Assembly: GCA_965247685.1 (NCBI GenBank)
Contig: OZ252021.1
Coordinates: forward strand, 600,001-632,000
From: Bdellovibrionales bacterium
GTDB taxonomy: Bacteria; Bdellovibrionota; Bdellovibrionia; Bdellovibrionales; UBA1609
Length of the DNA stretch: 32,000 nt
Reading direction: 5' to 3'
Shown piece after piece: positions 21,628-31,057 of this stretch. The notes under the pieces are model-generated. The model had not been told where the DNA came from. It ran no database searches and saw nothing but the letters and a program-made list of their open reading frames with translations. Every line of letters starts with the position of its first letter. The stretch's first letter is position 1. The position numbers and the translations under genes were made by a program.

Positions 21628-22151
21628 AATGCACATTCTCCTTTTTATAATGAAAATTGCTATCAGATTAGAGGCTTAAAATCCAGAAAAAAAAGAGCCT
21701 TATTTCCTTTATAAAAAGATCTACTTGAAAAAACTAAGAGAAATCAATAACTTATGCTAAATCCTTATCTTTTCAAAAATAGATTTTAAAGTCTTAATTT
21801 TATACAAAAAAGCTTTGGGGGAATCTTTCGGCTAAAACCACAGAATTTTTAGGGGAATTATATACTTAACTTTCCATGGAATTTGACTTGATTTGAGGCA
21901 ATGGAAAATCTGAAGAAAGTTTTGAAAATAATTCTTTCTTAATAAACCAGAGAAAAAATCTAAGAAGATTTTAAAAACAACACAGCCAAAGAATAACCAC
22001 GCTTTAAAAAAGACATGATTAGTCTTTAAAGAAGAATTTAATATTAATCTTAAAAATTTTGAACCGCCTGTGTAAAATGTAAAGATTCATGCTTTATGAA
22101 TATATATACAAAAACTATACAATTTATAAATTATGTATAAATAAATAGTGT

Positions 22152-22220
22152 GAAGTCGTCGATAGTATATATATATGTTATTTTTTGAAATAAATTCTTA
22201 AGTATCAATGAAGGTAAAAG
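22152..22220 (+). promoter_or_regulatory. Conserved 5' cassette of the S8-HEAT family (copy A): putative promoter/5'UTR/RBS
   Basis: …GTCGTCGATAGTATAT…TTATTTTTTGAAATAAATTCTTAAGTATCAATGAAGGTAAAAG-ATG. The last ~45 nt are identical in all three copies. GAAGGT 7-8 nt before the ATG is SD-like. The function is inferred only from conservation and position. Confidence 0.4.
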
Positions 22221-24149
22221 ATGTACTTTTTAAAACAAATTTTTAAAGTGTCTTTTCTATTGATTTTTTTAAGCTTTAGTTTGTTCGCACAAACTAATGA
22301 AGAAGACACAGAAGCAGGTTCTCCTGCAAATTGTCCTTCTTGTGAGAATAGTTTTAGTTTGTTCCCACAAACTAATGAAGAAGATACAGAAGCAGGTTCT
22401 CCTGCAAATTGTCCTTCTTGTGAGAATAATTCTCCGTCAATGAGATTATCCAAGGATTTAGATTCCTTACGAAAAGCTAATGTGAAAACCTGTAATGTAA
22501 TATATTCGCCACATAATTCCATGAAAGACAGAATGGGGCTATCTGATTACTGGGCTCAAGAGCTGATAGGAGCGGATCTTTTAAGAGAAGAGTTAGAAAA
22601 AGTTCCTCCTCCTAAAACAAAGAATTTTATTGCTGTTTTTGACACTTCGACGAACAATCACAACGTTCATGTGAAGAATTTAATTTCTGATGAAGGCACT
22701 CAAGCTATTTTACCAGAATTAAAAGACCAAATAGTTTATGCTGAAGCAATTGATCCTCTTCAGTTTGTAGCAGCGGCTGAGCGTTTCCTCCGACAAGGGA
22801 CTCCTTCTTTTATCAATAATTCGGCGACTTATGTGTGGGAGAAGCTTTCGCGAACCATCTATGGGGCTTTTAAATCCTTATCTCCACCTTCTGTGCTAGT
22901 GACTAGTAGTGGTAATTACTATCCTATAGGTGTAGAGCAAATGAAAAGTGAAGCTTCAAAGGAGTTTTCAGCTATTATTGTGGGTAGCTTATCCCCCAAT
23001 GGGGTTGTGAGCAATCATTCTTCAGATGGAGAAGAAGTGCATATTCTAGCTCCTGCTGATGCATTTATCACAACTGCTGATGCTCAAGGGAATTATAGGC
23101 GATTTGGAGGCACCAGTGGAGCTGCTCCTTTAGTGACGGGTAGTTTAGCAGGATTTGAATGGCTTTCTGGTTATCATCCTACAGCCAAAGAGTCCAAAAT
23201 ACTTTTGGAAAAAACAGCTCTTCCTACACTCGAGTCCCTCGTGAAACCAAGAAGAAACGGGGTAGGTTTATTAAATTCCTATAAACTAGGAATGGTGGCT
23301 CAACGTTTAAAGCAAAAATGCCAGAACAAAAAGCCGTCTTGTTTTAAGAAAGAGATTGAAAATAATGAGAACTATATATTTAAAGTGGATCCAAATGTAA
23401 AGAATGAATTGTCGAGAGTGTTCCCTTCTTGTGCTATGAAAAATAGGTCTAAGCCACATGAGAATACAGTCCTATCTAGTTGTGAAGATAAGAAAAGAGT
23501 ATTTAAGCAGTTAAGAAAAGTAGCACTCCTTACTTCTCATCAAAAAGAGTTCTTAGATGCTTTAAGCTGTATCTATAAAGAGGAAGGATTTGATAGAAAT
23601 GCAAAAGCTTTAAAAAATTTATCTAGATTTTCTAGTTTCAAAAGAGAATTCTTTGAAAGATTATTGACAGGAATGATAGAGGATTTTGATCCTAATATGA
23701 GACAAGCAGCTGTTAGGCAAGCGAGTAAGTTAGGATATGAACGCGGCTTTCAATTGCTAGAAAAATCGATACAAACTTCAATTTATAAAGTTAAAAAAGC
23801 AGTTGTTAAGTCCGCGAGTCAGATGGGAGGTCCGAAAGGCTTAGAGATGTTAGAAAAATTGGGACAAGATTCAAATCCTGAAGTTAGAAGCATAGTTGCT
23901 TATTACGCGAGTCAGATGGAAGATGAGCAAGGCTTAGAGATTTTAGAAAAATTGGCAAAAGATCCAGACCCTGCAGTTAGACAAGCAGTTGTTTATTATG
24001 CGAGTCAGATGGGAGGCGATCGAGTTATTGAGTTGTTGCAACAATTAGCAGCTGATGAAAATCACAAGGTCAGAGAACTTGCAAAGTTGTTGCTCGCAAA
24101 GTTGTTGCTCAATGAAAAAATGAAGAAACGGAAAATAAATAATTCATAA
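22221..24149 (+). CDS. Secreted subtilase (S8)-like protein with 4-Cys module and C-terminal HEAT-like repeats (family copy A)
   Basis: 642-aa ORF with a Sec signal peptide (…FLSFSLFA/QT). The S8 motif series is present (IAVFDT, HNVHVKNLI, SFINNS, VTSSGNYY, GTSGAAPLVTGSLAG). A Cys module (KCQNKKPSC…FPSCA…SSCED) follows, then about 4-5 degenerate 31-aa HEAT/PBS-like repeats (DPDPAVRQAVVYYASQMGG). Confidence 0.8.
   Translation: MYFLKQIFKVSFLLIFLSFSLFAQTNEEDTEAGSPANCPSCENSFSLFPQTNEEDTEAGSPANCPSCENNSPSMRLSKDLDSLRKANVKTCNVIYSPHNSMKDRMGLSDYWAQELIGADLLREELEKVPPPKTKNFIAVFDTSTNNHNVHVKNLISDEGTQAILPELKDQIVYAEAIDPLQFVAAAERFLRQGTPSFINNSATYVWEKLSRTIYGAFKSLSPPSVLVTSSGNYYPIGVEQMKSEASKEFSAIIVGSLSPNGVVSNHSSDGEEVHILAPADAFITTADAQGNYRRFGGTSGAAPLVTGSLAGFEWLSGYHPTAKESKILLEKTALPTLESLVKPRRNGVGLLNSYKLGMVAQRLKQKCQNKKPSCFKKEIENNENYIFKVDPNVKNELSRVFPSCAMKNRSKPHENTVLSSCEDKKRVFKQLRKVALLTSHQKEFLDALSCIYKEEGFDRNAKALKNLSRFSSFKREFFERLLTGMIEDFDPNMRQAAVRQASKLGYERGFQLLEKSIQTSIYKVKKAVVKSASQMGGPKGLEMLEKLGQDSNPEVRSIVAYYASQMEDEQGLEILEKLAKDPDPAVRQAVVYYASQMGGDRVIELLQQLAADENHKVRELAKLLLAKLLLNEKMKKRKINNS
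22275..22430 (+). repeat. 78-nt tandem duplication (2 units) inside the 5' end of copy A
   Basis: Units 22275-22352 and 22353-22430 differ at only a few positions. They encode FSLFAQTNEEDTEAGSPANCPSCENS / FSLFPQTNEEDTEAGSPANCPSCENN. Confidence 0.9.
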
Positions 24150-24161
24150 ACAAATACCCTA

Positions 24162-24227
24162 GAGTTGTCGATAACGTATGTATATTATTTTTTGAAATAA
24201 ATTCTTAAGTATCAATGAAGGTAAAAG
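24162..24227 (+). promoter_or_regulatory. Conserved 5' cassette (copy B)
   Basis: GAGTTGTCGATAACGTATGTATATTATTTTTTGAAATAAATTCTTAAGTATCAATGAAGGTAAAAG is identical to 27686..27751. Confidence 0.4.
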
Positions 24228-30142: not shown

Positions 30143-30246
30143 TAAAGACTCCTATGTCAATAGGCTTTGAGTTATTGCAAACGATGATAGATGATGGAGA
30201 TTCTGATATCAAAACACTTGTAAACCAGTATCTATCTGAATTAAAA
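30056..30246 (+). repeat. Conserved 3' cassette of the family (copy after C)
   Basis: Near-identical to 25026..25216. Sequence diverges after CTGAATTAAAA. Confidence 0.9.
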
Positions 30247-30387
30247 AATGAGGACAAAAAATAACTAATTTTTACAATTTCTTCTCAAAAACTCGAAGAA
30301 GGTTATTATAACTAAATAATTATTAAAAATTAAAAAAAACTATTTATTTGCCGATAATTAGTATATCCTATACAAGGAGTAAAGGTT

Positions 30388-31026
30388 ATGAAAAAGCACT
30401 ATTTGTATGATGATGGTTGTGACTTTTTGAAAACCTATTGGTTTTTTAAACTGTCTTTTCTATTAATTTCTTTAAGCTTTTGCTTTTCAAGTGTATCAGA
30501 CGATACGTCATTTCAAGTGCAAAACCAAAAAGCATCTTCCTATTTTGCATTAGTTTCTAATAACAGAAAAGAAAACCCTGTTAACAACAATAACAAGGTT
30601 GAAAAACAACCTTCAAGAGAAAGAGAAAGAGAAAGAGAAAGAGAAAGAGAAAGAGAAAGAGAAAGAGAAAGAGAAAGAGAAAGAGAAAGAGAAAGAGAAA
30701 GAGAAGATAGAAAGCTATCTTTTAGAGAACGAATGGAACAAAGAAGAAAGGAAAAACCCGTAGCAAGAGGGATTATTATTCGATTCAATAACAAGAGCTG
30801 GCCAAATAAAGAACAAACTCAATTAATTTCTAAATACTTGGCAGACAATAATCTAATAAAGGAACGTGAATTTGAAGACCCCAAAATGTGGGTTATGGAT
30901 TGGAAAGAAGGAGGCAATAAACCTGCTCCTAAAGCTCTGACTATTTGTCAAGGCTTACCTTCTACGATTTCTACTATAACAGATTATTGTGAACCGAATA
31001 TGTTACATCGCCTGAATTTCTTGTAA
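30388..31026 (+). CDS. Secreted (Arg-Glu)15-repeat protein with C-terminal subtilisin-propeptide (I9)-like domain
   Basis: 212-aa ORF. Its hydrophobic segment (FFKLSFLLISLSFCFSS) is homologous at the nucleotide level to the family signal peptide (AAAGTGTCTTTTCTATTGATTT/AAACTGTCTTTTCTATTAATTT). It has a (RE)15 tract. The C-terminus (RGIIIRFNNKSW…LISKYLADNNLIKEREF…ALTICQGLPSTISTITDYCEPNMLHRL) parallels the subtilisin prodomain pattern (YIVGFKQ…VISEKGGKVQKQF…[22 protein letters not shown]). Confidence 0.6.
   Translation: MKKHYLYDDGCDFLKTYWFFKLSFLLISLSFCFSSVSDDTSFQVQNQKASSYFALVSNNRKENPVNNNNKVEKQPSREREREREREREREREREREREREREREREDRKLSFRERMEQRRKEKPVARGIIIRFNNKSWPNKEQTQLISKYLADNNLIKEREFEDPKMWVMDWKEGGNKPAPKALTICQGLPSTISTITDYCEPNMLHRLNFL
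30616..30705 (+). repeat. Hexanucleotide microsatellite (AGAGAA)15
   Basis: 15 perfect AGAGAA units, in frame, encoding (RE)15. Confidence 0.95.
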
Positions 31027-31057
31027 AATAAATAGTGTGCAATCGTCGATAGCATAT
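31026..31057 (+). repeat. Orphan copy of the outer part of the family 5' cassette
   Basis: AAATAAATAGTGTGCAATCGTCGATAGCATAT matches 22139..22170 (AAATAAATAGTGTGAAGTCGTCGATAGTATAT) at 29/32 positions. Here it is followed by the IS remnant instead of a family gene. Confidence 0.75.

Follow-up and report, generated by a model that had tools for sequence, protein, structure and literature searches.

Gene conversion within concerted and birth-and-death evolution as the probable origin of a mosaic array of predicted secreted S8-protease/HEAT-repeat genes in a Bdellovibrionales bacterium

Does a tandem gene array with near-identical ends, mosaic interiors and partial copies constitute a dedicated system for generating variation, or is it a product of duplication, homologous recombination and decay? 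The question is raised by a cluster of ~9 kb that lies in a 32,000-nucleotide (nt) stretch of a Bdellovibrionales bacterium (contig OZ252021.1, positions 600,001 to 632,000; hereafter the window) and consists of recently duplicated genes for predicted secreted S8-family (subtilisin-like) proteases bearing HEAT repeats, all of them on the plus strand in the open reading frame (ORF) listing. A preliminary description, made from the sequence alone, took the cluster for a candidate recombination-driven variation system, of a pattern seen in antigenic-variation loci and polymorphic-toxin orphan arrays. Here, we describe a computational analysis of this array and of its relatives in other genomes. 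We present evidence that segments have passed between the copies, and we argue that the array has probably arisen by homologous gene conversion in the course of ordinary concerted and birth-and-death evolution, under diversifying selection. The process itself is known; the gene family and its habit of forming arrays are undescribed in the literature searched. As the preliminary description had suspected of the locus organization, the literature search returned no paper on a fusion of an S8 domain, a Cys-rich linker and HEAT repeats, on the family, or on this type of locus.

The structure of the array was established from the ORF listing, self-BLAST and a three-way alignment of the main copies A, B and C. 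These begin with a common block that starts ~55-60 nt before the ATG, slightly further out for A and B (from ~22165, 24170 and 27694 in A, B and C, respectively), and continues with few mismatches through the signal peptide and the NEEDTEAGSPANCPSCE segment. By self-BLAST this block is 94.9% identical between A and C (22154-22350 versus 27687-27881) and 91.1% identical between A and B (22126-22350 versus 24135-24357); the 5' cassettes that precede the three genes on the plus strand occupy 22126-22220, 24135-24227 and 27687-27751. Within the protease domain lies a 195-nt core on the plus strand (A 22542-22736, B 24546-24740, C 28070-28264), in which one base differs across the three copies, and which encodes LSDYWAQE...FDTSTNNHNVHV, carrying the assigned catalytic Asp and the catalytic His. 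Copies B and C share a 3' cassette that is 98.4% identical over 191 nt (25026-25216 and 30056-30246, plus strand). It takes in the final HEAT repeat with its stop codon, then a HEAT remnant that is out of frame and ends in ...IKTLVNQYLSELK; a partial copy of this cassette is present at 26879-26934. The tail that follows the stop codons of B and C, and again that of gene E, reads in another frame as a HEAT unit (...GFELLQTMIDDGDSDIKTLVNQYLSELK). A 32-nt motif brackets the whole array, with exactly two occurrences in the window, one inside the 5' cassette of A (22139-22170) and one on the plus strand at 31026-31057, where it begins at the end of gene G, directly after its stop codon; 0 of 100 shuffles gave any match to it. 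Recent duplications are found at scales that range from AAGAGA repeated 16.5 times in G, through 15-nt and 78-nt units each present twice in A, an exact 93-nt HEAT unit in C and a 782-nt tandem comprising E and F, to the 2-3.5-kb gene units themselves. Base composition is uniform across the array. The near-identical 5' block and core, the shared 3' cassette and the bracketing motif had all been pointed out in the preliminary description, and each was recovered here; the further recent duplications agree with its picture of the locus.

The exchange of segments is recorded most directly in copy B (24228-25112, plus strand), a C-like gene of 294 amino acids (aa) that is both a deletion derivative and a mosaic. 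An in-frame deletion of ~1.5 kb joins the codons after ...SSSG to the last HEAT repeat, with the loss of the GTSGAAP motif and its catalytic Ser; no notable microhomology was found at the junction. Sites that discriminate A from C run along B as 77 of C type (24354-24567), 19 consecutive ones of A type (24741-24818) and 12 of C type (24829-24938), and the longest A-type run was matched in 0 of 200,000 permutations. These informative sites place the A-type conversion tract on the plus strand at 24741-24818 as a minimum, with outer bounds of 24568-24828. A further 16 sites are private to B. Synonymous divergence (dS) between A and C is uneven as well, with a value of 0 over the 65 codons of the core, 0.08 at the 5' end and 0.45-0.51 in the linker and HEAT repeats, and the segments therefore differ in age. 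Gene conversion and segmental exchange between the copies is thus real and statistically clear, and the segmental rather than uniform similarity that had first drawn attention to B stands.

Copies A (22221-24149, 642 aa) and C (27752-30142, 796 aa, full-length), both on the plus strand, encode a signal peptide, an S8 domain, a Cys-rich linker and HEAT repeats, of which A has ~5 and C has 9. The two proteins share 60-63% aa identity. The HEAT array of C (29255-30102, plus strand) is built from 93-nt units, the first two being 99 nt, and its exact 93-nt tandem duplicate lies at 29679-29864; in A, the 78-nt and 15-nt duplications are at 22275-22428 and 24081-24110. The Pfam profile Peptidase_S8 (PF00082, cut-off 21.8 bits) scores 38.8 bits for A and 42 bits for C, and 20.9 bits, under the cut-off, for B; it is matched only at profile positions ~112-280, that is, over its C-terminal half. 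HEAT_2 scores 83 and 95.8 bits for the A and C proteins, above the curated Pfam cut-off. The catalytic motifs of C are FD140TS, H146NVHV, SGN228, which contains the oxyanion Asn, and GTS295GAAP. Sequence alignment brings the Asn and Ser motifs into register with those of subtilisin, and the catalytic Asp is provisionally assigned from its motif and its strand position in an AlphaFold2 model rather than from triad geometry. In a 30-member alignment of the family H146 is invariant, as are six Cys residues, and D140, N228 and S295 are kept in at least 90% of the members. The AlphaFold2 model of C, with a mean predicted local distance difference test (pLDDT) score of 81.6, has paired helices in its HEAT part. 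Foldseek matched this model to many subtilisins, with target-normalised template modelling (TM) scores of 0.65-0.72 (~0.70) over 280-290 columns, and matched its C-terminal part to alphaRep HEAT proteins. The HEAT units of the family are 31 residues long and also match NblB. Fold and motifs thus agree with those of S8 proteases and of PBS-lyase-type HEAT proteins such as the alphaRep scaffolds and NblB, whereas the spacing of the catalytic residues does not: the catalytic Asp and His lie ~32 residues apart in subtilisin (MEROPS S8) and only six apart in the array family (FDTSTNNH). Searches with hidden Markov models (HMMs) and structure prediction on C agree on the Peptidase_S8 and HEAT assignment proposed earlier, and A and C are predicted to be Sec-secreted S8 proteases.

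Comparison with other genomes indicates that both the family and its array habit extend beyond this locus. At least 314 proteins of the collection searched belong to the family, and among them only C itself and A, both on one 1.28-Mb contig, exceed 45% identity to C; the genome collection contains relatives at 52% identity or less only. The named relatives are all metagenome-assembled genomes (MAGs) assigned to Bdellovibrionales, Bdellovibrionaceae, Bacteriovoracaceae or Oligoflexia, many of them with chromosomes of 1.4-2.5 Mb, and the family appears to be restricted to uncultured Bdellovibrionales-like bacteria whose genomes measure 1.3-2.5 Mb. Head-to-tail arrays occur with three copies in L001, four in L002 and six in L037, dispersed copies occur in other genomes, and the neighbourhoods of the arrays vary from genome to genome. 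Signal peptides are near identical inside each genome and unrelated between genomes. Over the first 100-200 codons the paralogues of the two older arrays, L001 and L002, have 93-100% nt identity, third positions included, as against 60-85% downstream. For every pair of L001 copies, and for pairs 1-4 and 3-4 of L002, N-terminal dS is 0.08-0.37 versus 0.5-2.6 downstream. The remaining L002 pairs and the very young L037 array did not have a lower N-terminal than downstream dS, and in a crude nt comparison (-80 to +90) the 5' ends were no more alike than the protease cores, the effect being clear only at the level of codons and dS. The sameness of the 5' ends within genomes, together with their unrelatedness between genomes, argues that they are a recurring trait made by conversion and not a functionally conserved sequence. 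A single-copy member carried by three near-identical strains of a relative (P0010, P0121, P0122) is almost invariant except for its called start; the contigs bearing the dispersed copies P0063, P0064 and P0096 derive from one sample and were not counted as separate strains.

The array also contains the remains of copies, and these are associated with a second type of gene. Gene D (25231-26016, plus strand) encodes a 261-aa putative lipoprotein (..LLLSHC..) that has its own C-terminal domain and a 5' region common to E and F. In gene E (26178-26777, plus strand, 199 aa) a D-type lipoprotein 5' part is fused to a segment of the Cys-rich linker of the protease family, and gene F (26960-27544, plus strand, 194 aa) is a tandem duplicate of E (26169-26878 versus 26951-27645, 89% identity). 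The linker segment of E and F has 43-45% aa identity to A and C and ends by a stop mutation at the conserved SCED motif; both genes are matched by the family HMM. The family fragments noted previously after these two genes were found again, after E at 26752-26914 and after F at 27519-27681, with self-BLAST matches at 76% (23279-23625 versus 27352-27677) and 83% (26761-26876 versus 28995-29119).

The selective forces acting on these genes were estimated from pairwise Nei-Gojobori counts of the ratio of non-synonymous to synonymous divergence (dN/dS, or omega), taken over short segments of recombining sequences. Between A and C, omega is 2.3 (18 non-synonymous and 3 synonymous changes) in a 25-codon patch at 22737-22810, which is the patch exchanged between A and B; elsewhere it is 1.2 in the mid-protease region, 0.99 in the HEAT repeats, 0.49 in the Ser region and 0.38 in the linker. 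The linker is constrained in every array, with omega of 0.06-0.44, and in L037, leaving aside the near-identical copies 1 and 2, omega is 0.86-1.5 for the protease and 0.7-1.8 for the HEAT repeats. A constrained linker in the same genes makes blanket pseudogenisation unlikely and serves as an internal control, arguing that the surfaces formed by the protease and the HEAT repeats are diversifying. The counts are most simply read as diversifying selection on these two parts, or at least as a strong relaxation of constraint there, and they suggest that a set of proteases differing in their targets has been favoured. E and F (omega 0.93) seem to evolve neutrally, and this value together with that of B versus C (1.13) is consistent with decay.

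These results are best accounted for by concerted and birth-and-death evolution of a known, ordinary kind, which we consider the probable explanation. Unequal crossing-over and tandem duplication would make copies at scales from 6 nt to ~3.5 kb. General homologous gene conversion, presumably of the RecA type, would repeatedly homogenise parts of these copies, chiefly the 5' end and the Asp/His core, and would leave mosaics of which B is one. The decaying B, E and F and the remnants would be the products of deletion, of mutation to stop codons and of fusion to the neighbouring lipoprotein gene, and selection would favour diversity in the target-facing protease surface and the HEAT repeats while the linker changes more slowly at non-synonymous sites. 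The copies are more alike within the genome (60-63%) than between genomes (45% or less), their similarity is patchy, their dS is heterogeneous, and B, E and F are decayed, as concerted and birth-and-death evolution predicts. A partial parallel is offered by the spl operon of Staphylococcus aureus, which encodes chymotrypsin-like (S1) proteases without a repeat domain; like the array, it consists of recent head-to-tail duplicates of secreted serine-protease genes with divergent substrate-facing residues, and to our knowledge the operon is not noted for mosaic conversion or for decayed chimeras.

Several points weigh against this explanation. That the 5' region has repeatedly been homogenised, and in several genomes, may point to a targeted process, for which this explanation has no need. 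Omega values near 1 may reflect relaxed constraint instead of positive selection, as the counts are small and recombination biases such estimates. The 54-nt 5' cassette has no exact match in the metagenome collection, the nearest non-self homologue in the protein collection is 45% identical, and the source is itself a metagenome-assembled contig, in which some assembly chimerism is possible. A chimeric or collapsed assembly of strain variants could in principle have produced the mosaic and truncated copies, and it would fit the facts that the relatives found are all MAGs and that the window proteins lie on a single 1.28-Mb contig, the source locus having no second observation in any collection searched. 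We regard such an artefact as very unlikely. The copies have many private substitutions and indels and stand each in its own unique flanks, the deletion in B is in frame and accompanied by its private sites, arrays of a similar build are present on a number of independent chromosomes or long contigs, and composition does not change across the array.

Dedicated variation machinery was sought in the window. A Pfam scan of the window ORFs, which in positions 1-20000 took in those of 90 aa and longer, gave no recombinase, invertase or reverse transcriptase; one 386-aa ORF (14816-15976) was without a Pfam match. Only two weak inverted repeats are present in the window, 71% and 84% complementary. 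No phase-variable repeat was found in the 5' cassette. A promoter scan performed no better than on shuffled sequence (37 sites versus 32 +/- 6), and an Rfam scan found two tRNAs only, both far from the array. Terminator-like matches in the cassette were discarded, as they lie on the minus strand inside coding sequence and are simply the repeated GCAGGAGAACCTGC of the TEAGSPAN segment; neither the promoter scan nor these matches were given a regulatory meaning.

In the silent-cassette systems pilE/pilS of Neisseria, vlsE of Borrelia and msp2 of Anaplasma, one expression site is supplied by promoterless, 5'-truncated donors. The array resembles them in its segmental, non-reciprocal transfer, its conserved flanks and the presence of partial copies at the locus. 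It differs from them in that a single expression site with promoterless donors was not found: upstream region, start codon and signal peptide are the same in A, B and C, and this complete 5' region on all three argues against a single expression site fed by silent cassettes, while the partial copies appear to decay neutrally. The features of an inversion shufflon are likewise missing, there being no recombinase in the scanned ORFs, no significant inverted sites and no oppositely oriented family genes. As for a diversity-generating retroelement, no reverse transcriptase is encoded in the scanned window ORFs; adenine-specific mismatches were not looked at. The vsp, vlp and vsa families of Mycoplasma switch by site-specific invertases or promoter poly(A) tracts, and their products are surface lipoprotein coats. 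As in the array, a highly conserved signal peptide and 5' non-coding region precede coding sequence that is divergent and repetitive within itself, but the array has neither invertase nor poly(A) switch and its products are predicted enzymes. The polymorphic-toxin comparison fails on the absence of any toxin domain (Pfam, NCBIfam) and of immunity-gene pairing, and D, E and F have no homologues outside the source genome. The likeness of the array to a classical programmed cassette system, be it a silent-cassette site, an inversion shufflon or a polymorphic toxin with orphans, is therefore superficial, extending to conserved ends, variable interiors and partial copies downstream, and we consider an origin of this kind highly improbable. 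Of the interpretation in the preliminary description, exchange between copies, deletion derivatives and chimeric remnants (B, E and F) are borne out, as is the S8 and HEAT assignment; a dedicated variation system is not supported, either as an antigenic-variation-type locus or as a polymorphic-toxin orphan array.

A less specialised form of functional variation comes closer to the observations. The 5' and 3' cassettes would serve as homology anchors for the shuffling, with appreciable frequency, of protease and HEAT coding segments, including segments of truncated copies (B and the E/F remnants), into expressed genes, and cells would come to differ in protease specificity, as with the bab chimeras of Helicobacter pylori or opa of Neisseria. 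The bab genes are the nearest bacterial analogue: babA, babB and babC are nearly identical at both the 5' and the 3' end but diverge in between, and intragenomic conversion between them yields chimeric genes (PMC4552749). The array resembles them in its near-identical ends, divergent middle and conversion chimera, and in bab these features do support adaptive gene conversion (PMC4552749). The bab genes differ in occupying dispersed loci, in encoding adhesins, in having CT-repeat phase variation and in having been seen to switch experimentally, whereas the array is tandem, consists of protease genes and is known from sequence alone. Functional variation of this sort would agree with the mosaic B and its identical flanks, with the raised dN/dS of the exchanged patch and HEAT repeats beside a constrained linker, with the recurrence of 5' homogenisation in independent genomes and with the retention of open reading frames by the truncated copies. 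We nevertheless judge it unlikely. There is one clear conversion tract only; E and F are neutral and derive from a divergent paralogue, and so would make poor donors; every copy has its own start signals, and the 5' cassette has no phase-variable repeat; the single-copy orthologue is invariant in the three strains of a relative; and no second observation of the locus turned up in any collection searched.

In related genomes a HEAT-less branch of the family has a different organization. There, two neighbouring genes encode the protein, in no fewer than 10 genomes and perhaps as many as 16 (L012, L013, L015-L019, L025 and L031; also L011, L014, L020, L022-L024, L027 and L029), with an ATGA overlap both in L013 (9476-10384 and 10381-11892) and in L018 (9683-10387 and 10384-11811). 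The first gene stops after the Asp/His half (...SDYWAQEMIG..FDT..H..KNLIS..AVLP...). The second encodes the Asn/Ser half (C[RK]ATVxPSFINxSM...) and, in the majority of nine pairs that were examined closely, has an apparent signal peptide of its own. The split point falls in the same variable loop that was exchanged between A and B in the window. Judged from these reading frames, the two-gene form appears to be a subtilase that is split by nature, conserved as such and secreted in separate parts, which could interest enzymologists and protein engineers.

Family copies in other genomes often adjoin restriction-modification or mobile/defence-type genes, as in L036 (13849-15988), L001 (18409-22448) and L038 (17523-19114), where the neighbouring genes encode N6_N4_Mtase and MjaV, HsdM, a BglII-like endonuclease with a methylase, and AAA_14/DUF4143. 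This suggests that the arrays of the family sit in regions of genome plasticity.

The family is unusual in the six-residue spacing of Asp and His, in its fusion to HEAT repeats, in signal peptides that are homogenised within each genome and specific to it, and in the two-gene split in relatives. Even when read as ordinary concerted evolution, the array makes a clear bacterial case: a single 9-kb stretch shows tandem duplication, conversion, in-frame deletion, fusion and truncation associated with an insertion sequence (IS), all acting on one family of predicted secreted enzymes. We tentatively put forward, with more doubt than conviction, that S8-HEAT arrays are a lineage-wide repertoire-generating device of small-genome uncultured Bdellovibrionales. 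Continuously homogenised, genome-specific 5' modules, with their common signals for expression and secretion, would keep the copies competent for recombination, and conversion, duplication of HEAT units and positive selection would diversify the substrate-facing protease loop and the HEAT binding surface, yielding rapidly adaptable secreted proteases against variable prey or host proteins. The split subtilases would then be an extreme outcome of the same modularity. A diversifying repertoire of secreted proteases offers a plausible route to learning which targets these bacteria attack or adhere to.

The right end of the array is occupied by gene G (30388-31026, plus strand, 212 aa), a stand-alone N-terminal domain of the family. 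Its signal peptide is of family type (38 nt, 92% identical to that of A), and (AAGAGA)x16.5 at 30615-30714 encodes a tract of ~30 Arg and Glu residues. The C-terminal half of G aligns with a domain, ARGVILxFHxWP...YCEP, that precedes the TEAG..CxxC motif in the full-length members of other genomes; A, B and C are without this N-terminal domain. G might work in trans, as a chaperone or inhibitor in the manner of a propeptide, although this is speculative. Adjoining the second copy of the outer motif, and forming the right boundary of the array, is a degraded N-terminal fragment of an IS1595-family transposase (31085-31405, minus strand), which was recognised by NCBIfam (NF033547, E = 4.8e-16, profile positions 1-65 of 215) and not by Pfam. 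The fragment retains the zinc ribbon and helix-turn-helix part, has stop codons upstream and is cut off just before the DDE domain.

Gene D was considered as a conserved partner of the proteases, such as an inhibitor or immunity protein, and was rejected in this role, as it has no homologues outside the source genome; like E and F, it has no counterpart in the arrays of other genomes. The 3' tail of the family (...ATCAAAACACTTGTAAACCAGTATCTATCTGAATTAAAA...) runs directly into the starts of the lipoprotein genes D and F, at 25140-25230 and 26879-26959. With the tail abutting both starts, what was duplicated ancestrally may have been a pair of genes, an S8-HEAT gene together with a lipoprotein gene.

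On the minus strand, ORFs of 101-105 aa run antisense across the start of each main copy (A, 22205-22522; B, 24212-24517; C, 27736-28041). They recur only because the 5' cassette recurs and are in all likelihood no genes. Elsewhere, the window encodes housekeeping functions (prfA, prmC, aroA, serS, obg, rplU, RNase E/G, gatCAB and ligA) together with TPR-repeat, Fic-domain and RsfS-domain proteins. Two RsfS (ribosomal silencing factor) ORFs lie ~2 kb apart on the minus strand (8432-8989 and 11007-11981), with a Fic/DOC-family gene (9436-10518) between them, and one of the two is fused to a cytidylyltransferase-like (NadD-type) domain.

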